Positions 11,541 to 54,549 of a DNA stretch of 64,000 bases are shown here, piece after piece. The DNA lies in assembly GCA_030265395.1 (NCBI GenBank), contig JARFYF010000064.1, positions 4,735,286-4,799,285 of the forward strand, in the 5' to 3' direction. The stretch comes from Rhina ancylostomus (lineage: Eukaryota). Position numbers and translations under genes: made by a program. Below the pieces are notes generated by a model, which was not told where the DNA came from, ran no database searches, and saw only the letters and a program-made list of their open reading frames with translations. How positions within the stretch are numbered: the first letter of the stretch is position 1; every line of letters begins with the position of its first letter.

Positions 11541-13840
11541 GGAGATGCCATGTCAGTTCTATTAACGACTTATAGCAATAACATTAAATCATGTGAAAGG
11601 CCCAAGATATCATGTGTGATAGTCCTTGCATGTAAGAGTGCACAAAAAGGTGCTAGCAGATGAGATCAGACAGGTCGGGGATTATTTTTAAGTGGGGTGG
11701 GAAAGGGAGGGATATTTCAGAATAGGTGGGGTTTGGTGAGGGCAGAGTTAGCAGCAAACTGGAAGGTTTTTTTGGAATATTGAGGAAAATAATATAAGGA
11801 GATGGGGCATTGAGGGAAAAGGTATCAAGGGGATCAGGATGTCATGGGGCAGGCACACGTTTGGAAAGTAGAGGGATCAGAAATTCATGAGGTGGATGTG
11901 TTCAAAGCCGTGAACAACTGGCAACGGTGGATTGGATGCACAATCTGGTGGTGCTAGAAGTTGAACAAATGATCACTTGGTGGGGGGATAGTCAGGGACA
12001 TGTTCATGGGCCCGAATGACAACAATGAAGGGCCAGGAGTTGTGGGTAGGTTGGGGGGAGGGATGGTTGTGGGGGTGGTGGGGGGGGCAGCACTTGGAAG
12101 CACCAAAGATACAAGGTGGGAGTAAACCAAGGAAAATTTTCCAGTGCTAAAGCCTAACAGAAGATCAATGCCTTAGAGTCTTTAGCCATGGACTAGGTAA
12201 GGCTGACCCTTTTAAATAATCCTCTGCATTTCCATTTAAGGCCTGTTTCTATGTGAGTGGCTGGTACAGTATGCAGAACTTGAGTGTACACATTTGAAAC
12301 AAAGTCACTGAAAAATTCATAGCAGCCGCCTTGTGTGTGCATGCATTCCATACAGAGAACTATTGAAACTGCATGATCTGCACCCAAAGGACATGATTCC
12401 ATTTAGCGATTGGGTTACAATATAAATCCCTTCCTTGCACACAAAAGTGTTGCAGTAAATTAAAAGAATTTGTTGAATGCAAAATAAGGTGGCACTGCTC
12501 AATATTTGCAGGTAGCATATTATCTAACAATGCTAGGAATCCAAATCCTGTTCTGAAAACAATAAAGTTCAGACAGGTGACTGACCCCAGTGGACATGTA
12601 TTCATGGAACATAAACTGGCTCAATCCTGACTCAGCACCTTTAACAGATCTATTCCCAAAAGTTTTTCCCAGTTTGGTAGGCTGGGGCAGTCAATATAAT
12701 TGGTGACCTCGTTTCTGGTCAGTCATGCTATGGTATCTNNNNNNNNNNNNNNNNNNNNNNNNNNNNNNNNNNNNNNNNNNNNNNNNNNNNNNNNNNNNNN
12801 NNNNNNNNNNNNNNNNNNNNNNNNNNNNNNNNNNNNNNAACCCTTCTTTCACCTTGTAGTAAGTCTGTCAATATAGAATTACTCATTAATTGGACTCGCT
12901 AACTGCCACAGGATTTTTCATCTTAACATCTTGCTCCTTCAGTTTTTTTTTACAACATATCTTCAAAAATATTGGCAATGCTTCACAGCTTGTTTGCCTA
13001 CTAATTTACAGATGTTTGGTTCTTGGGTTTCACGTAAATATTACACTTGAAAGAGAAAATAAGTGGTTTTTTTAAGAAATGCAATTAGTATAATTAAAAT
13101 GACCAACAAAATCAGTAATAGAAGTTGGTCTCAGATACACAGATAAAAGCTCCTTCATTGGTCATGAACTTTTAAATCCACATTAGACAGACAGGGAGGG
13201 AATGGACAAATCTTATCTTAACCAGGTGGAACATGTTTAAAATGGAGTTGTAGCTTTTGGCAAGACCATTTTTTGCCAGACTGAAAGGTCTGGTGTAAAT
13301 TTCAATTGAATATATCTGGATGTGAATCTGATACTGTAGATCCCAGCCAGTCCAACAGCAATTCTGCATCATTTCTGTCTTGTGCCTTAGATGCTTGGAT
13401 TTTTTTTTCCAGACTGCTTATTTCTAAAACCCAGCTTACTTGCAATCTGATGGTTCAGACAACAATTTTTTGTTAATTCAAAGATAGCTGTCTTTCAAAC
13501 CAAGAAATAACCAAGCTGGCTTGGTATGTATCTCTGCACATACAAAAGAGGAAAGTGTAAACCTAGAATTCAATTTAAAGGAACTCTTTCTGTCAGAGTT
13601 ATGCAATGAGTAATCCTTTTTCTAAAGTGAAAAGCAATTATTTCTGAGTCGTTTCATGACTTTCTGGAAATTCAAGCAGGCATTTCTTGGAATGAGCCAC
13701 CATTATGCCCCGATGTGATTTCTATGTTGGGACATATGATTATGTCATTCACAAACAATGTGCATTTTGGAACATTGTAGGTGAACTTGGACCATGTTGT
13801 CTTGGGGTACTTGTTGTTGGGCACTCCTGGGATAATGTGG

Positions 13841-14043
13841 ACACACAGGCGACTGCAGATGCTGGAATCTAGAGCAACAAACAATCTGCTGGAGGAACTC
13901 AGCGAGTTGAGCAGCATCTGTGGGAGGAAAGATGCGGGGTTTTGTCCTGACACAGGGTNNNNNNNNNNNNNNNNNNNNNNNNNNNNNNNNNNNNNNNNNN
14001 NNNNNNNCCCGCTGAGTTCTTCCAGCAGATTGTTTGTTGCTCT
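13841..14043. mobile_element. Fold-back Penelope-derived element (centre in N gap)
   Basis: Inverted arms AGAGCAACAAACAATCTGCTGGAGGAACTCAGCG / CGCTGAGTTCTTCCAGCAGATTGTTTGTTGCTCT; flanking imperfect direct repeats ctcctgggataatgtgg / ctcttgagacaatgtgg. Confidence 0.8.
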
Positions 14044-22560: not shown

Positions 22561-23072
22561 TTAATATGAACAGAAATTACACAAACAAAGAATTTGGGAG
22601 CTTGAAGTTGTTTTTCCTTTGAGTTGTCACAATATGAGGGAAAAGGTAATATAATATATAAATAATATATAAAAGACAATATAAGTAACCCTCATTAACT
22701 TTTGCTATTTTTGTCCTGTTTATGCCTCTATACTTTTTTTGTTGTTTTACATCCATTGTACATAATATTTTTGCACCAAAAAAATGTCACACAATTTCAG
22801 TGCAAAAGCCTTCCAAACCTGACCTTTCCTGGCACCTTTTGGGTAGCACCAGTACAAGAATTAACTTTTTCATAATCCAGTCACAGTTACATATGCAAAA
22901 AGATAAGGCTCCAAATGTTCATAATTTATATCAGTGATTTGGAAGATGGGAATGGAGGTTAATATATCATAGACTGCTGACGATGTGAAGCTCCTTGGCA
23001 GTGTGGCTTTGAGAACAATGGCGAGCAACTCAGGGAGATACAGATAAGTTGAGTGGGTATGGACATGGCAGG

Positions 23073-23279
23073 AGACACAAGGGACGGCAGATGCTGGAAT
23101 TTGGAGTAAAATATAAACTACTGGAGAAACTCAGCAGGCCAGGCAGCATCTGTAGAAGGAAATGGTCAGTTGACATTTCAGGTGGAGACCCTACATCTGG
23201 ACTGGCTGAAGGGTCTCAGCCCGAAACATCAACTGTCCATTACCCTATACAGATGCTGTCTGACTCTGCTGAGTTTCTC
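23073..23279. mobile_element. Fold-back Penelope-derived element with two decayed hammerhead motifs
   Basis: Arms 'aactcagcagg..aggcagcatctgta' / 'tacagatgctgtctgactctgctgagtt'; centre holds antisense and sense '..gaagggtctcagcccgaaac..' motifs; TSD-like 23058-23072 vs 23280-23294 (12/15). Confidence 0.8.
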
Positions 23280-23989: not shown

Positions 23990-25140
23990 CAGCGACCGGG
24001 CCTCCGGGATGTGGGTCCGTCTCCTCACAGCCCGCACGCCGCTTGCTGTTGCACAAGCAGGGGTGGCCTCCGTCCCGACCCCCACCCCGCCAAAGGATGC
24101 TTACCAANNNNNNNNNNNNNNNNNNNNNNNNNNNNNNNNNNNNNNNGGGCCGGGGGCCGGGCGCCGCCACCGGGAGCCCGGCACAAGGGCGGCCGGGCGG
24201 CCGCCGCGCCTCACGTGATCCCGGAGGGAGTTGACGTGACACAAACGGGGCCGCCAGGGCGAGTTCCGACCGGAGCCCCGCCGGCCGGAGGGGGAGAGAG
24301 CCCGGCGGGGAGTGGGGGCCGGAGACCAGGGGAGCCGAGCCGCACCACCCACCAGCGCGGGCCCGGCATCGTTACCCGCCAATTAGCGTCGTCTCGACGC
24401 CGGCGGCGACTTCCGGCACATTTCTGCTGTCGGGTGGCGTCATCCTGCCTGGAGCCGCGCTCGCGCGCGCGTGTGGGTGTGTGCGCGCGCGATCGACCGT
24501 CGGGGGCGCGCGCGGCGGCGGGAGGGACGGAGACGGGGAGGAGGAGATCAGGGGCTAGCGGTGATTGCGGAGCCGGGGGGGGATTTTATCCTGGAACTTA
24601 CTGCTTCGGATAAGGAAGGTCGCTGCCGGGACGGGGAGAGGACTGGGGCAGTGCTGGTGGAGGGAAGGCGCCGCTCCGGTGAGTGGGGATTCTTCCTCCA
24701 ACAAACCCCCCACCCCCCGCGGTTCTCGGAGCGAAGTGTTTAAAGAGAAAGAAGGGGGAGGGGAACAGGTCCNNNNNNNNNNNNNNNNNNNNNNNNNNNN
24801 NNNNNNNNNNNNNNNNNNNNNNNNNNNNNNNNNNNNNNNNNNNNNNNNNNNNNNNNNNNNNNNNNNNNNNNNNNNNNNNNNNNNNNNNNNNNNNNNNNNN
24901 NNNNNNNNNNNNNNNNNNNNNNNNNNNNNNNNNNNNNNNNNNNNNNNNNNNNNNNNNNNNNNNNNNNNNNNNNNNNNNNNNNNNNNNNNNNNNNNNNNNN
25001 NNNNNNNNNNNNNNNNNNNNNNNNNNNNNNNNNNNNNNNNNNNNNNNNNNNNATGTCGGCGCAGCTTTATTTTCGACGTTAGAATCTGTTTAAAATTATA
25101 TATTTTTTCTCTTTGCTTCCAGCAGTGATCACGATGCATT
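23990..25140. promoter_or_regulatory. CpG island / promoter
   Basis: Only very GC- and CpG-rich segment of the window. Motifs: TCACGTGA 24211-24218, TGACGTG 24232-24238, CCAAT 24379-24383, ETS ACTTCCGG 24409-24416, GC boxes. Confidence 0.92.
24420..24678 (+). other. BMPR1A: Putative non-coding exon 1 of the gene downstream of LDB3, likely BMPR1A (start approximate)
   Basis: No ATG in the segment; strong donor CCG|GTGAGT at 24679-24684. Gene identity rests on vertebrate LDB3-BMPR1A tandem synteny and the long non-coding 5' intron of BMPR1A, not on coding sequence. Confidence 0.6.
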
Positions 25141-26950: not shown

Positions 26951-27590
26951 ATGAGCTTTTAAAAGTAGTAGTGAAATGCATGTTATTCTGGCATTTCTGT
27001 CTCTTTAATATTTCTGCTAATTGTTGTGTAAATATTTCTTCGTAAATATCAGTTCAAATGTATATTATGAACACATATCAGCAGTTTTGAACATGCTATG
27101 AATATTTTCACTTTTGTTATTTTTGATGCAATTTCTCCCAAGTGTTTCCCATGGTAGAAGCTGTTAACAGTACTTTGCCATTTTTATATTATTCTTTTTG
27201 ATTTTGATGTTGGCAAGTTGAACTTAATGATTTTCAAAAAATAAAAATAATTCAAAAATAAAAACAGAAATGCTCTAAATGTGCAACAGGTCTGTCAACA
27301 AAGACATTATGAAAGATATACACCAAAGCATTTTATCTTTATAGGTGTCCATCAGTTTATTTCTAAGATTTTCATTATGTGATCTCTGGAAACTAGTAGG
27401 CTTTTTGAAATTTCATTTGTTTCTTGATATCCTCATTTATTTATTGATAAAAACTAACATTTAATGCTTTGTTTGAATCATTTCGCAGGTCAGATTTATA
27501 CCATCAGAGCCTTCGCTAGTATATTGCAAAATGTTGTGGTACTCAGAAAAATCCTGAAGTTTAGTAATGTAACAGCAGATAGAATAGCTT

Positions 27591-27800
27591 AAGAAATGCA
27601 CACAAAATGCTAGAAGAACTCAGCAGGTCAGGCAGCATCAATGGAGGGAATAAATGATTCATGAATCCTGATGAAGGGTCTCAACCCGAAACATCGATTG
27701 TTCATTTCCCTCCATAGATGCTGTCTGACCTGCTGAGTTCTTCCAGCATTTTGTGTGCATTGCTCCAGATTTCCAGCATCTACATTCTCTCTTGTGGCTT
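27591..27800. mobile_element. Fold-back Penelope-derived element
   Basis: ~60-bp inverted arms 27595-27657 / 27702-27761; TSD-like CAGATAGAATAGCTT 27576-27590 vs CAGATAGGCTAGCTT 27801-27815. Confidence 0.85.
27664..27699 (+). ncRNA. Minimal type I hammerhead ribozyme motif
   Basis: AATC-CTGATGA-A-GGGT(CTCA)ACCC-GAAAC-ATC-GATT: stem I AATC/GATT, intact core, 4-bp stem II, AUC triplet, loopless stem III with a C-A mismatch. Confidence 0.7.
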
Positions 27801-27964
27801 CAGATAGGCTAGCTTTATGTTTAACACATTTAAAAGCGTTTAATTATGTGAACTGCATTTAAAAGTTAATTAAAATTCTTTCATTACTAATTGATTAGTG
27901 TTTTGATTATTCCCCTTGATTTTTGAAAACTTCAGTTTAATTGAAGTATATTGTCAGAATCCAA

Positions 27965-32405: not shown

Positions 32406-34149
32406 ATCATTTGCTCATCTGCAAATTAGACTCTCGGGTAATCGTGGTATGCGGAAACATGGCAGACAGGTAGTAACTGTACTTCAATCTTGTAGGAGCC
32501 TTCCTATATGACTGTGTTTATTGCTGCCTGCCATGCCTCGATTGCTAAGGTGCTTGTGTATCCTCTATCTTCAGTTCATATTATAGCTTTTCAGTTTACT
32601 TCTGGCACCTCTGTGCCTTCAAGCATATTGTCCTTTTTCAGCTATCATACTTTCAGTTTAATTAAAAATTCTTCTCAAATCCAATGCCAGCTTCCACATC
32701 AAAATGGCTTTTTTAAATTCTTGGCTGTGCATTTAGCAATTCTTTATTCACAGGCTGGGGAAGGGAGGATGCTTTTGATAGGGTAAACCCAGTTTGACCA
32801 TGGGGATAAGCTGTAAACTGTAATTTGGTCAATGAGTGAATGAGAGCAGTCAGAGAAACAGAATTTAGACACAAGAGTGTAGAAGTTGTGACATGCAGAG
32901 CAGGAAGACGTGCCTGACAGGCCACGTCTATTTTCTTTTTATCTGTCATCTCACTTTCTAACTGCTGACCTGCTGAGTATTTTCAGCAGTTTCTATTTTT
33001 ATTTTAGATTTCCAGTATCTTCATTTTTTGAATTTTCATTTGCTTTCGATAGCTATTTTAAATAGTCATAATTTTACTCTATCCAGGAGGATAGATCCAG
33101 GAGGAAAGCTTGAGGTTCATTAATTCCAGTGAAGTATTTAAAAAAAAATCTGTTCATCAGCTAGAACTAACTTGCTGAAAGAAGCTCTTCTATATTCCTA
33201 TTTAGGAACAATGTGTATTCCTGGGAAAGGTACAGGGGAGAGGCTGGTGGAATGGAATTATATGATTTCAGTTTCATTTACAAATGAGAAATGATCAAAG
33301 CATTTACTATGTTGCTTTATCTGTGTTATGCTTTGTGCTGTTAATTTCCTCCAAATTTTGCTAATGGATTGATGTCTTTGGGAACATAAAATATTATTTT
33401 GTTTTATTGCATAAAGTAATGATGAACCACATCCATCAAATAATCCAAATGATTCTTCCAAACATATTTTTAAAAACATATTGGCTATCTGGCAAATACA
33501 GCAACTAATTTGCATGATAAGCTCCTCAAACAGCTGAGATAAATAACCGGTTAATGTAATTTTGTGATGTTGGGATACTGGGAGAACTTGCTGCTCCTGT
33601 TTTGAATAATACCAAGAGAAGCTTTGTATTCAGCTGAACAAACAGACGTAGCTACGTAATCTTGTATACATGGCAAAGAATTTCCTGGAATTACCACACA
33701 GAAATAGTGCCCTTGGTGCAATGAGTCTGTATCGGCATTTGTTCTTCACACAAGCAACTAGTCCCATCTGTATTTACTTTACTTTTGCAATATCCATTCA
33801 TTTTTTTAGAAAAATAACCTGTCCAAAGAGCTGAATTTCCAGAGGTGAAGAGAGATTGTTTGCCTTTCACATCAAGGCAGTATTTGACTAAGCAAAACAT
33901 GGAAACATTTAAAACAAAAACTGAGCATTTAGCCTTTGGGCCTACTCCAATATTCAGCATGATCATGGTTAGTTATCCACTTCACTGTCCTGTTTCTGCC
34001 TTCTCCCCATATTCTTTGATCCCTTTGGCATTAGAATATATATCTAATTCTTGAATATATTTAAGGACTTGGCCTCTACTGTCTTCTGAGGTAGAGAATA
34101 TTATAGTTTTACCTTCTAAATGAAGAAATTTCTCCTGGTCTTATGACAT

Positions 34150-36404: not shown

Positions 36405-36805
36405 AAAAAACTGAATTCTAGAAATCTGAAATAAAGACAAGATATCTTTATTGGTCACATGTACATCGAAACACGGTGAAATGCATCTTTACATAGTGTT
36501 CTGGGGGCAGCCCGCAAGTGTCACCATGCTTCCAGCACTAGCACAGTATGCCCACAACTCCCTAACCCGTACGTCTTTGGAATGTGGGAGGAAGCCAGAG
36601 CACCCAGAGGAAACCCACGCAGACATGGGGAGAATGTACAAACTCCTTACAGACAGCAGTCGGAATTGAACCCGGGTCTCTGGAGTTGTAATAGCATTAC
36701 GTTAACCAGTACACTACTGTGCCTGAAGTACTTAACAGGCTCTGCGGCAACTGTGGAGAGAGAAAGAGTTAATATTTCAGGTCAAGAACCTTTCATCAGA
36801 GCTGA
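36405..36805. mobile_element. Older Penelope-derived element split by a SINE; antisense hammerhead motif at 36766-36804
   Basis: 'gaaatctgaaataaagaca' left of the SINE, 'tacttaacagg.tc..ggca.ctgtggagagagaaa' right. Minus strand reads AGCT-CTGATGA-A-AGGT(TCTTG)ACCT-GAAAT-ATT-AACT. Confidence 0.7.
36441..36723 (-). mobile_element. Full-length tRNA-derived V-SINE with Rex-like 3' tail
   Basis: Minus strand starts GGCACAGTAGTGTACTGGTTAAC..GACCCGGGTTCAATTCCG (A/B boxes), V-domain, ends 'gatgtacatgtgaccaataaagatat'. Confidence 0.88.
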
Positions 36806-39800
36806 ATACAAATATATTTGGGGAAAGTGTGGATTCAGTAATTTTGTGAATTTTTAAAAGTCTATTAAAAAGTGAAGTGATAGGTATTTGACATGCTTAA
36901 TGAGCACATGGCAAAAATTCAAATCAATCCCAAGTTTCTGTTGATTATTGTGACACCCTGGATGCCGCACAAGCTTTGAATCATGGATGATTCTCAGGCA
37001 GAGGGACTTGGTGACACCTTCTTTTCAAGGTAAAATCTCTTGTACCTTGTGTATCTTATTGGTCTCCAGTGCCAAAAATCATGCTTGTGTAAAATTCTGT
37101 TTAAATACACAGAAAATGTTACAAAACACGAGTCCCACAATCTCCCATGTCTCAACAGGCACTTCTCTCCAGTACCTTCTTGGATGAAGCAGTAGAGATA
37201 GCAGTGCGGTTTCAGAGGCATCATTAATGACAACTGGTAACAAAGCCAATAGCTGCAATAATATCACACTATTGGAGAGATTGAGAGGAATCTGGAATTA
37301 GATTGGGTAGGATAGTAATCCATGCAGGGCGTGACGAGCTACTGGAACTAGACTTGAATATTTCTTTGGGGAATAAAACAGATTTTGACCTGGTATGCTC
37401 TTTAAAGAAACAATTTTTAAGAGCTGGCATGACCTTTGCATCCAAGTACCAGCCAGATCTGGGTATACTTCTGAGATCAAACTTTATCAGGCTTTTCCAC
37501 ACAAGTACCAAAATAGGCATGCTTGAAAAAGAAATCAAACTCAAAATGTGTGATGCCCCAAGGTCCAAAAGTGTGATTAAAAGATTGATATTTTTCAGAC
37601 AGTTGAATATTAAAGTACATATTGCAATTGATGGTGATGGCATTTGTGTGCCTAATGTTCATCACATTTTAACTCCCTCACCCCACCAAGAGGTCCCTGC
37701 TGATTTACTGAGCAACTAAATTATCTGGTGACTATACAATAGTTTCTGAAAGGTTGTTATCTGTTAAGCTAATGGTTTGAATCTTGGAAATGTAGTGAAA
37801 ACCGATTAGGGATATGGTGGATTGCCAAATTAGGTATTTCTGTCTCTAAGCAGCATTTGTATCTCTAAGCAGTACTGTAATTTCTGTTGCATTACCGCAG
37901 TGGCTACACTTCAGAAGTGCAAATTGACTATGGATTGCTTCGGGAGGGTCTGAGGTTACTCAATCAAATATTTTCCTTTTCGGTTTTTTGCAGCTTATCG
38001 TTGGGAATCTTGCATTCTAACCAGATTCAATGTAAGTAATTTTCTTAAAAGCTCTCCTCCAATCTTCCAATTTTTTTTTAAATTTGGAAATATAGACACG
38101 TTCTGGACCAGAGGGAAAAATCATTACATTTCTAGAAACTTGTAATTATTAATCACATTTTAAATTATCAAAATCCCCATTTCTTCCACACCACTGATAT
38201 CTAGTACTCCCCAGCCTGTCCGGCCGAATCTAGTCATTTATCACTCCACATTAAGTAGTTAAGTCCAAACAAAAGTCGTCCCCAAAAGATTGTTTTATAT
38301 TTAAAACAGAATTACTAATATGCCAGTTTGCTTGAGAAAACTAGAAAAGCTCTAGCAGAATTTACATTCCTTTTAATTGTTAATTTTGCAGAGGACAATC
38401 TGTTTTTGTTTCTACTCAACTGATATCCTAGAAATATGAAGTGAATTCCATTTAGTCAGTACAGATATGCAGTTTTGCAGCCACATTCCATTTTCCCTCC
38501 AGTGTTAAAGTAGGCTGTCTCTTGCCATATCAAAATATTGCTGGTTACAGGTGAATTATCACAGCAAGATGGGGAGACATATTCTTCCTCTGAATCATTG
38601 ACTAGTTTTTTTCAGCGTTGTTCTGGAATGCAATCATAAGAACAGGTTGGATGAATTCTTAGTGTTGGATCTCTGAAGTGTGGAGGCAGAGTGACTTTGT
38701 CTTTGAAATTAGAGAAATTGAGAAAAGCAACCCATAGTAGTTGCTCAATGTGTTTAAAGACCACATTTCCAAAGATGTTTGCAGCACAGAATTTGTTACT
38801 TTAAGCAGGTGAGGTCCTGATAGTAACAAGAAGAACATCAATAGTAGCTTGCATTTGAATAGTATCTTTGATGTCCTAAAATATTCATAGCATCAAAGGG
38901 ATATTAACAAATAAAACTTGACATCAAGTCATATAAGGAAATTTTATGGTAGATAATGAAAAGCTTGAACAAAATAAGGACATAACTGGCAAATTTTCAA
39001 ATTTCTCTAGTTGATGTCAGTGTTGTAAATGTACTGGAAAGCTTATCTACAGTCACAGCTGATTCTAGGACACAAGTCTTCGGTATAGATTTCATATAGT
39101 TCCATAACCTTTGCTGCATTCATTTCTCTTGGTTGCTTCTTGAGATCACATTGAGTGAATCAAATGGCTAAATTCTGGTTACTGTGATGATTCAGATCTC
39201 AGGAAGAAACCAATTACTTGGCACTTCAGGATTGACTTTAGCACTTGTGCCGGGCTTTGTCATTGAGAATTACAATGTGCTGGAACTTCATTTTCCTTCT
39301 GTCCACTGCTTAATTGTGCATCATCATTCATGACAAAATGTGGCAGGACTGCAGAACTTTGATCTGAACCATTGATTGTGGGGTCAGTTAGCTTTGTAAA
39401 TTGTACACTTTCTTGTTTTGCTGTTGATGGTATGTGCTTATCAGGGGATGTTCCATTGTCCACAAATGACCAGATGCCATGAGGCTTCATGAAGATCTGG
39501 AGTCAAAGTGGAGGGCTCCCAGGGATATCCCTTCCTATCTATGTAGCACTACACTGACTCATCTGATGGGTTGGCCCTGTTGGTGGGACAGGACATTCCC
39601 AAGGTTTGTGATAGAGGAATCTGGCATATTTTCTTTAATGTATGATTCTCTATGTATGATTATTAGCCTGTTGCTTGAATATTCCGTCTGCTGGACTTCT
39701 CTCCCAATTTTGGCACCAATCTTGAAATGTTTGATGGGAACTTCATAAGGCTGGCTGGGCTGGGAGGAACATTCCCCCAGTAGTTATGTTTACTTAACAT

Positions 39801-47810: not shown

Positions 47811-48257
47811 AGTATTGATATATTTATATCTTGTATTTATAGATAATTTTGAAAAATTGTTCCGTTACAGAAATGAGTATCAAGTATGCTTTTATTATGC
47901 ATATGAAAATGAGTGAGAGGATATATATGGATCTTAAAATCCTATTTTAAGAGGGTAGCTTGTGCTTGCAGCAGAGAAGTTTTGCAACACAAATAAGAAA
48001 CTGGTTCAACTTATTGTATTCTTCACTTTTGGTGCTAAAGTGCACTTCAATTCATAGAATCTTAACTCTTTTAGAAACATTTTATTGATATTTGAGCTCC
48101 CATATAACTAGGATTGCAACCACTTAATGCATTCCCTTCAGCCTGATCTAATCTTGTATTGAATTTTGTGTAATTTTACAAGTAGACTATACTGACCTCA
48201 GATGTTTTGTTTGAAAATAGTCATTGATAAAAGAAGAAATGTGTGTATTTCTGTAAT

Positions 48258-48399
48258 AGGGAGACACAAGAGATTCTGCAGATGCCGGAATCCGGAGCAA
48301 CACACAAAGTCTTGATGAAGGGTCTTGACCCGAAACGCTGACTGTTTAATTCCTTCCATAGATGCTGCTTGACCTGCTGAGTTCCTCCAGCACTTTTTA
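48258..48399. mobile_element. Penelope-derived element with decayed hammerhead and perfect 16-bp TSD
   Basis: AGTC-TTGATGA-A-GGGTC(TT)GACCC-GAAAC-GCT-GACT at 48308-48343; TGTGTATTTCTGTAAT at 48242-48257 and 48400-48415. Confidence 0.85.
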
Positions 48400-48409
48400 T
48401 GTGTATTTC

Positions 48410-48730
48410 TGTAATGCCTTGCCCCTTTCAGAACATTTCAAAGTGTTTTACAGCTGGTGAAGCACTTATGAAGTTTAGTCACTGCTGTAATGTAGGAAAT
48501 ATGGTAGCTAAGTTTTGCACAGCAAACTCCCTCCAATTGTAGTCTGATAATCTCTTTGTCTTGTTATTTGAAATATTAATCAAGGACACTGGATAATTCC
48601 CTACCCCCAGTACTGAATGATCAAAGGATCTTTTTTGTCATCCAAAAATGGTACTTCTGACCGTAGAGCAACTACTCAGTGCTTTCTGATCTTTGCATTC
48701 TACGGTCTGAAGTGGGAACTTTATTTGAGA
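48410..48730 (-). mobile_element. Decayed SacSINE1/Deu-SINE-like element
   Basis: 'aaagtgttttacagc..tgaagcact...agtcactgctgtaatgtaggaaa..ggtagctaa.ttt.gcacagcaa'. Confidence 0.7.
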
Positions 48731-53000: not shown

Positions 53001-54549
53001 TGACATTGCAGACCTTGCAAGGAGAACAAGATGGATTGTTCACATTGTATTCTGGGCAATTATGTTTCGAAGGGCTGTAGTTGCACCATAAATGGTGGTA
53101 CATTTAATGATTGTCAGTTGTTGACCGGTGGATAGCAAAGTCTGTTTCATCAATAGCCGTGATAATAGTGAGATCAAAGACCAGGTTATACTGTTGCATT
53201 TTTTCCTCGTGAAAGAAGCACCTTATTTTTGGATAAAGACACATAAGTATTAACATTTCTCTCACACCTTAATTGTGCAGATTACATTGTCCAGCAGCTA
53301 AAAATAATTGCCTTTGATCTCGCGTTTAATGACAATTGTGGCTTAATTTGCAGTGTTAGGTAAATGAAACAGGAAGTATAAATACTCAGCAGATCAGACA
53401 TCATGTGTGGAAAGGGACATACAGTGTTTACAAGTCAATGATCTCTTGTGCAATATTTTGATTTTGGGTTATTGTTTAATTGTGGCAATTGTTTAAATTC
53501 AGCATAGGATATCAGTATCTTTGGATGGTCAAATAGAAATGGAAACACTTTGCCTCTATAACCTGATAACATAAAGTTTCTGAGCTTTGTGTCTCCATTG
53601 GGTTGCTTTTTCCTATCATAGTAATCTCCTCAATTTCCACACACAAAGTCTCCATTTCAGACTTCATAATGTAGTTGGCATGTTTGTGTGGTGTTCCTTC
53701 ATGAGATTGACAGTCCTGTATGGTAATCCACTGTATGTGAGAAGCAGCCAGAGAGTGTTATGCTTGATAGAATCAACAGTAGCTTTGATATCGACATAAA
53801 CTATCCAGATAGCATGTTGAAACTTCCACCTAGTTCTATTGCATGAGGAGATTCAGTGTAGTGTTAGCAAGCTGTTTGCCACTGCTGGTCAGAGTAATTT
53901 GATGCCACACTATTATATCTGCTCTACTTTCTATTGCAAAATGACAATATGATGCTTTTCTTCCAGTCTGCTGGTATAGTGTGTAGAAAAATCTTGACTA
54001 TTAATTTCATGGCAGCTGGCCCAGCAGATNNNNNNNNNNNNNNNNNNNNNNNNNNNNNNNNNNNNNNNNNNNNNNNNNNNNNNNNNNNNNNNNNNNNNNN
54101 NNNNNNNNNNNNNNNNNNNNNNNNNNNNNCTCAGTATTTCTAATCTGGTATTACAAATTCTTGGTGCACTGCTGCTTTTCAACCCTCACTTGGTGCTGAG
54201 CAGATAATATTTGAACTTTGATTGCCATTGTGGTAGGTGGAAATGAAGGTTGTTAGGGATGCAAGGTTGGGGCTGATCTGATCTAGGAGAGGAGTTCTTT
54301 CCATTGTGCTGAATTCTACATCCAACACTGACCAAGCAGCCATTAGCATCTGTGATTGGACTAAAAACATTGCAGTAAGCTTTCCAGAGTTGCCAGATAC
54401 CTGGACAGGCTTGGCTGGTCTTAAAATATTCCACGACATTATTTGGAGTTCAGCAGAGTCGTTCAAGTTCATTGGCCAGCATTTGTTCCTTAATCAATAC
54501 TAGAGTGATAGATGATCTCATCATTTAATCTGATTGGTTTCTCAGGGAC

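Follow-up and report, generated by a model that had tools for sequence, protein, structure and literature searches.

Positions 27576-27815 of a 64,000-nt stretch of the Rhina ancylostomus genome (the window, by which we mean the whole stretch analyzed) fold back on themselves around a hammerhead ribozyme motif. Such a locus raises the question of whether it is a ribozyme-bearing retroelement in its own right, a ribozyme at work inside a host intron, or a by-product of a larger element's insertion. A first-pass annotation had read it as a non-coding, non-autonomous ribozyme retroelement. Our analysis indicates that it is very probably a small head-to-head insertion, now decayed, of the end piece (pLTR, made up of hammerhead, arm, and tail) of an endonuclease-bearing (EN+) Penelope-like element (PLE), whose fold-back was likely made during insertion and not inherited from a hairpin parent.

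Layout of the insertion and its relatives

The window element and three related insertions are listed below; family positions (+/-) are numbered from the C of CTGATGA.

27576..27590, no strand: left target-site duplication (TSD), 13 of 15 positions identical to the right copy
27592..27650, minus strand: inverted 5'-truncated pLTR arm, tail-less, family positions ~+35 to +100
27651..27667, no strand: junction filler, containing the 12-bp palindrome 27656-27667, source of the AATC read as stem I
27664..27699, plus strand: minimal type I hammerhead motif of the pLTR, decayed
27700..27764, plus strand: pLTR arm, stopping at the family's first 3'-end cluster (+85 to +105)
27765..27800, plus strand: ~36-nt PLE tail, stopping at the second 3'-end cluster (+126 to +134)
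27801..27815, no strand: right TSD
48242..48415, plus strand: sister insertion of mirror geometry (inverted tail, hammerhead, tail-less arm)
23072..23275, no strand: fold-back insertion from a sister subfamily, the left arm carrying the tail
13840..14042, no strand: fold-back insertion of another subfamily, split by an assembly gap

The earlier physical description stands. The ~60-bp inverted arms are present, 27592-27650 matching the reverse complement of 27706-27764 at 55 of 59 positions, and the imperfect 15-bp direct repeat (27576-27590 and 27801-27815) is indeed a TSD. The hammerhead motif is also as described, with both core boxes and stem II: AATC (27664-27667), CTGATGA (27668-27674), an extra A, a GGGT/ACCC stem II with loop CTCA, GAAAC (27688-27692), ATC, and GATT (27696-27699). 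With its core boxes, stems I and II, and the extra base after A9, the motif is of the minimal, Penelope type. Two features had been overlooked, namely the tail at 27765-27800, found on the right arm only, and the junction palindrome, which includes the AATC. Relative to an intact copy, the window hammerhead differs at 6 of 38 positions, and one of these changes hits the CpG of the ACGU dimer palindrome. One-strand A-to-G editing between the arms was tried and rejected, their four differences not being of that type.

The sister insertion at 48.3 kb is tail-left, where the window copy is tail-right, and is bounded by a 16-bp perfect direct repeat (48242-48257 and 48400-48415). Its AGTC/GACT stem I is borne out on the plus strand, but C3 has become U and U16.1 is altered. 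The AATC/GATT of the window copy had been taken as a paired change that preserves stem I. This reading did not survive a count over the 125 of 171 motifs that retain the upstream CA: the pair was G-C in 111, A-C in 8, G-T in 4, and something else in 2, with A-T in none, and AATC is half of the 12-bp junction palindrome. Older pieces of related hammerhead-bearing PLE ends lie at window positions 36750-36810 (minus strand), 32960-33030, and 53380-53440.

As a pattern, the motif is borderline. The two core boxes at this spacing match once in the window against 0.06 expected, and 6 of 100 shuffles contain at least one match. Rfam assigned no family to the window at gathering score, and even at E up to 10 no hammerhead appeared, only generic hairpin look-alikes. 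The motif is real because of its family: the intact 31-nt core has 122 exact copies in the genome, against 0 for a reversed control. Exact matches to the arms number 338 and 934. About 32 loci were found in 344 kb of sampled DNA and only 3 in 80 kb from distant contigs; the copy density is about one per 10-27 kb, which for 2.2 Gb amounts to a number on the order of 100,000.

The Penelope-like parent

The window piece is 87% identical over 133 nt to the hammerhead end of two longer loci, L033 and L081, which run in order through RT motifs, a CxxxxCxxC linker, GIY-YIG-type motifs, a stop, a 334-nt pyrimidine-rich 3' UTR, and the hammerhead end. This terminal sequence is accordingly linked to a PLE-type RT ORF with DKG, GxxMG, and YxDD motifs. 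C-terminal to the RT, L033, L034, L040, L043, and L196 carry motifs that we take to be of GIY-YIG type. L196 (G000:C2762), likely a young sister subfamily, preserves a near-intact tandem junction in which endonuclease, UTR, hammerhead, arm, tail, and ATG succeed one another; an acceptor-like site lies just before the ATG. The ATG, 167 nt past the core, opens a 738-aa frame with a DKG motif that matches Pfam RVT_1 at E 5e-5, under the curated cut-off. Homologues of this frame number 363 among 7991 candidates; RVT_1 is present in many of them and PF01541 GIY-YIG in some, and the nearest named protein relatives come from Mobula and Chiloscyllium. A PDB sequence search with the 738-aa frame gave 0 matches, and Pfam matched 0 of 3 broken-frame pieces of L033. 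The window's own subfamily passes from the tail into a homologous ORF start in L360, and in both L196 and L360 the end piece also stands ahead of the ORF, the partial tandem of a pLTR. The linker zinc finger CxxxxCxxC recurs in L033, L196, and the homologues P0003 and P0022; because of it, the sequence of the putative parent points to the Neptune or Nematis type, following the clades of PMC8557442.

The window copy has the anatomy described for EN+ PLE insertion units in PMC8557442 and, for Adineta Pen2a_Av, in PMC3846280: a pLTR, an adjacent inverted 5'-truncated copy, an optional one-sided tail of 30-40 bp, and a TSD. It departs from the rotifer units in measuring ~210 bp overall without ORF sequence and in its 15-bp TSD, against 8-10 bp in the rotifer examples; its family, too, is set apart by numbers on the order of 100,000. 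The metazoan PLE pLTR hammerheads of PMC4209133 share with ours the core boxes, the extra base between A9 and G10.1, the G10.1-C11.1 pair, a 5-bp stem I, and, in intact copies, the palindromic 15.2-16.2; like our family, they occur mostly as single truncated copies, some close together on opposite strands. Stem II is 4 bp here versus 7-8 bp there, and the window copy has lost the palindrome. Cartilaginous fish do not figure among the hosts that we saw named in PMC4209133, and our literature search, confined to papers and preprints, returned no description of this family in cartilaginous fish or of the 5' hot spot considered below; Repbase, Dfam, or supplementary data may contain one.

Two sets of composite loci were also observed. 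L039, L050, L055, L057, and L059 (e.g., L039:35-3072) have ~3 kb of a composite repeat in common (77-87% identity): a PLE 3' piece is embedded in a different repeat, and LINE-like RT fragments lie on the opposite strand. The composite seems to have carried the PLE piece along as cargo when it spread. In the chimeric insertions L360:650-1600 and L365, an ORF-start fragment is followed by an end piece that starts at the hammerhead edge or close to it, suggesting that the template was switched after the 5' stop.

Ends, arms, and lineage of the insertions

Ends were mapped in two sets picked regardless of upstream sequence, comprising 90 intact-core copies and 100 exact-arm copies. The 190 3' ends fall into two clusters ~35 nt apart, with 96 at +85 to +105, 80 at +126 to +134 (+134 being the reference limit for this mapping), and 14 elsewhere. 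The two clusters mark the PLE tail, attributed in PMC11167929 to a pair of internal RT start sites. As in the Anolis Poseidon element PAc of that study, two RT starts bound the tail at a similar distance behind the hammerhead. The ray/shark parent differs from PAc in having a zinc finger of Neptune/Nematis type in its linker and an ATG placed ~165 nt behind the hammerhead; the ATG of PAc is within the hammerhead.

A profile search retrieved 83 head-to-head fold-backs. With 37 from loci picked by fold-back queries and 8 beside gaps left out of the tail count, 38 were kept; the tail was on one arm in 29, on neither in 6, and on both in 3 (P 7e-4 versus independent ends). Inner ends of the partner arm are spread over ~80 nt, junctions differ between copies, and both mirror geometries occur. 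Across 63 pairs, minority letters common to both arms of an insertion number 29 (shuffled mean 7.4, maximum 16 in 500 shuffles) and private ones 263, an excess of shared letters indicating that the arms of one insertion come from one source. The shared letters include subfamily letters and so are compatible with two-strand priming or snap-back alike; snap-back synthesis or later gene conversion could also have produced them.

The end positions, from which alone we infer two-strand priming and the nature of the 5' stop, suggest the following route. The PLE protein would nick both strands ~15 bp apart, and a cDNA would be primed on each strand, each from a different one of the two internal start sites. 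Both would stop early, often at the hammerhead 5' edge, which would be the likely RNA 5' end or a strong stop. Their two 3' ends would then be joined by microhomology or filler, here a 12-bp palindrome, and the window copy would have decayed neutrally after insertion. PMC11167929 describes two internal RT starts, cutting and extension of both strands, and a predicted dimer.

The fold-back of the same element might instead have arisen by snap-back of a single cDNA or by self-priming on antisense RNA, the latter being the origin to which PMC3846280 attributes head-to-head palindromic junctions. The junction palindrome of the window copy agrees with such an origin, as do junctions lying exactly at stem I in L163, L008, and L236 and the minority letters shared between arms. 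The joint 27666-27699 also occurs in contigs of both runs X1 and X2. When an empty site was sought in a related organism, run X2 contigs covered the repeat, not the unique flanks; run X1 contigs match both flanks of the element exactly, none spanning it. Three observations fit snap-back less well: the outer ends occupy the family's two 3' sites in opposition and in either direction, a tail on the inverted arm also occurs together with a tail-less hammerhead arm, and inverted segments, too, often terminate at -2 to -5. We consider it a possible but doubtful origin, and two-strand priming is the reading we prefer.

At their 5' ends, the copies pile up at the hammerhead edge. This hot spot was first seen in the intact-core set, where 22 ends fell in -6 to -2 (6.0% per nt versus 0.8% elsewhere; 34 of 90 copies censored by gaps). 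The arm-selected set served as an independent test and gave 15 ends in the same interval (4.9% versus 1.1% per nt; P 3e-6; 12 of 100 censored). The bin just inside, -1 to +7, was raised too (2.2% per nt). At the predicted cleavage site (+21 to +32) there was no excess of 5' ends, with 7 in 1157 positions at risk (0.6% per nt), and Anolis PAc likewise gave no sign of ends at that site (PMC11167929). Thirty non-inverted hot-spot copies had no common upstream sequence. A TSD lay within 12 nt of the 5' end in 7 of them (at 0-3 nt in six), compared with 9 of 870 control pairs, and was not found at that threshold in the other 23; in 9 of the 30, a G precedes the start, as looked for in a test for a cap-derived G. 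The site reads CCAGTCC, which we take to be initiator-like.

This pile-up fits copying to the RNA 5' end after internal priming. Among candidate causes, which include an RT stall or snap-back at stem I and a splice acceptor, we favor the RNA 5' end, judging from end positions only. PLEs are described as having internal promoters in PMC2377424. Were the hot spot a splice acceptor (pyrimidine tract, CAG, then TC), short copies would derive from spliced RNA; an AG does follow a pyrimidine tract at -4/-3 in the window's subfamily and in L196, and helix I is where the Penelope intron of D. virilis ends (PMC4209133). Yet no upstream exon is shared, the best 60-nt pair among 406 scoring 25, and six of the seven visible TSDs sit 0-3 nt from the start, so that we regard splicing as improbable. 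A few sense segments, in L028, L030, L332, and L354, start at +25, as if RT had skipped the hammerhead between two GTC repeats brought together by stem I; these copies are too few for testing.

Having favored the RNA 5' end, we can extend that reading tentatively, to a version that we rate as rather unlikely in its entirety. The hammerhead 5' edge would be the PLE transcription start, the tiny copies would be strong-stop cDNAs primed in the 5' pLTR and run to the RNA end, and a PLE dimer would insert one per strand from the two start sites, perhaps from two RNAs held by the hammerhead palindrome. If this were true, the ribozyme would be a start marker and dimerization handle, not a cutter, and the stumps would form a very large fossil record of Penelope integration.

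The short copies do not form a lineage of their own with fixed structure and diagnostic letters. Between 37 short copies, which start at the hammerhead, and 92 long ones, 0 of 123 variable columns differ (smallest P 0.056). Variable junctions and the lack of diagnostic letters together indicate that short and folded copies were made repeatedly from the sources of the long copies, and the separate non-autonomous ribozyme retroelement proposed at first is not upheld. A dedicated hairpin-shaped element of this kind, retrozyme- or SINE-like and replicating as a unit, would account for the many TSD-flanked copies of like overall shape and for the recurrent 5' start, and vertebrates do have non-autonomous PLE derivatives (bioRxiv 10.64898/2026.07.22.740005). 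It is already contradicted by the ~80-nt variation of the partner arm's inner end, by the two mirror geometries, and by the failure of any letter to separate short from long copies; we hold it to be very improbable. Non-LTR retrozymes, as described in the same preprint and PMC7229834, resemble the window element in being non-coding and PLE-pLTR-derived with a type I hammerhead. Their defining trait is a tandem array of units, each with a hammerhead, and they have their own family consensus, whereas the window holds a dispersed inverted stump with a single motif and no separate lineage.

Hammerhead decay and the putative host-gene setting

Of the 100 arm-selected copies, 58 cover the whole motif and were scored for decay. 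Differences were found in 49 of 580 cells at non-CpG core positions (8.4%) and in 118 of 1160 cells at other positions (10.2%; P 0.26); excess conservation of the CTGATGA/GAAA boxes among copies, which the first-pass annotation had named as its own test, is therefore not seen. CpG positions differed in 172 of 464 cases over the 58 copies, the G of ACGU was altered in 28 copies, and 19 of these neutrally decaying copies kept all 11 core positions. The copies therefore decay neutrally. ACAU in the window copy is an ordinary CpG loss, so that this copy is likely dead. Selection is visible only between subfamilies: their majority sequences retain the boxes and stems and vary in loop II, N7, and the linker. 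The one exception is a subfamily of 12 copies (among them L081:1007-1138, L170, L257, L259, L370, and window 13840-14042) with the majority core CUGAUGC-A, in which C replaces A9; this is a tolerated insertion variant or else a ribozyme lineage that kept spreading although dead.

Structure prediction also suggests that the window hammerhead is likely inactive, although its 11 scored core positions are all intact. It lacks the palindromic stem III for dimer pairing, with ACAU where the family has ACGU; the predicted self-duplex energy is +3.4 versus -1.7 kcal/mol, and the cofold -21.2 versus -33.7. In the folded element, predicted pairing is 0.27-0.36 for stem I and 0.85-0.99 for stem II. The earlier suspicion that the ACGU to ACAU change may cripple the ribozyme is in keeping with this predicted weaker dimer. 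Even intact minimal hammerheads are reported as silent as monomers and weak as dimers (PMC4209133), or as needing the PLE protein and being dispensable for insertion in vitro (PMC11167929).

A CpG island at window ~24.1-24.8 kb (24147-24772), with a donor-like site near 24678, is likely the non-coding first exon of a downstream receptor gene. A TGF-beta-receptor GS-domain exon, plausibly that of BMPR1A, which it resembles, shares the strand of the element and lies ~170 kb downstream; BMP-receptor coding motifs were absent from the window and from ~100 kb on each side. The element plausibly lies in the first (long 5') intron of BMPR1A, through a putative splice link. Because copy density is high, this position carries no information, and the window copy has no evident host-gene role. 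That it is an active or co-opted intronic ribozyme acting on host pre-mRNA is extremely improbable: its sense orientation in a likely transcription unit, intact core, and well-paired stem II must be set against the broken dimer palindrome, the weak predicted stem I, the monomer silence (PMC4209133) or PLE-protein dependence (PMC11167929) of intact minimal hammerheads, and the survival of the full core in neutrally decaying copies as well.

As one of roughly 100,000 decayed stumps, the window copy matters little by itself. Such hairpins mimic MITEs, microRNA precursors, and selected ribozymes, and call for caution in annotation. The PLE family is a usable natural experiment on the formation of inverted ends and tails and on the role of the hammerhead. 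A one-sided tail and a 5' stop at the hammerhead edge, not at the cleavage site, are countable signals, and the end statistics of the family offer a modest lead on Penelope integration.
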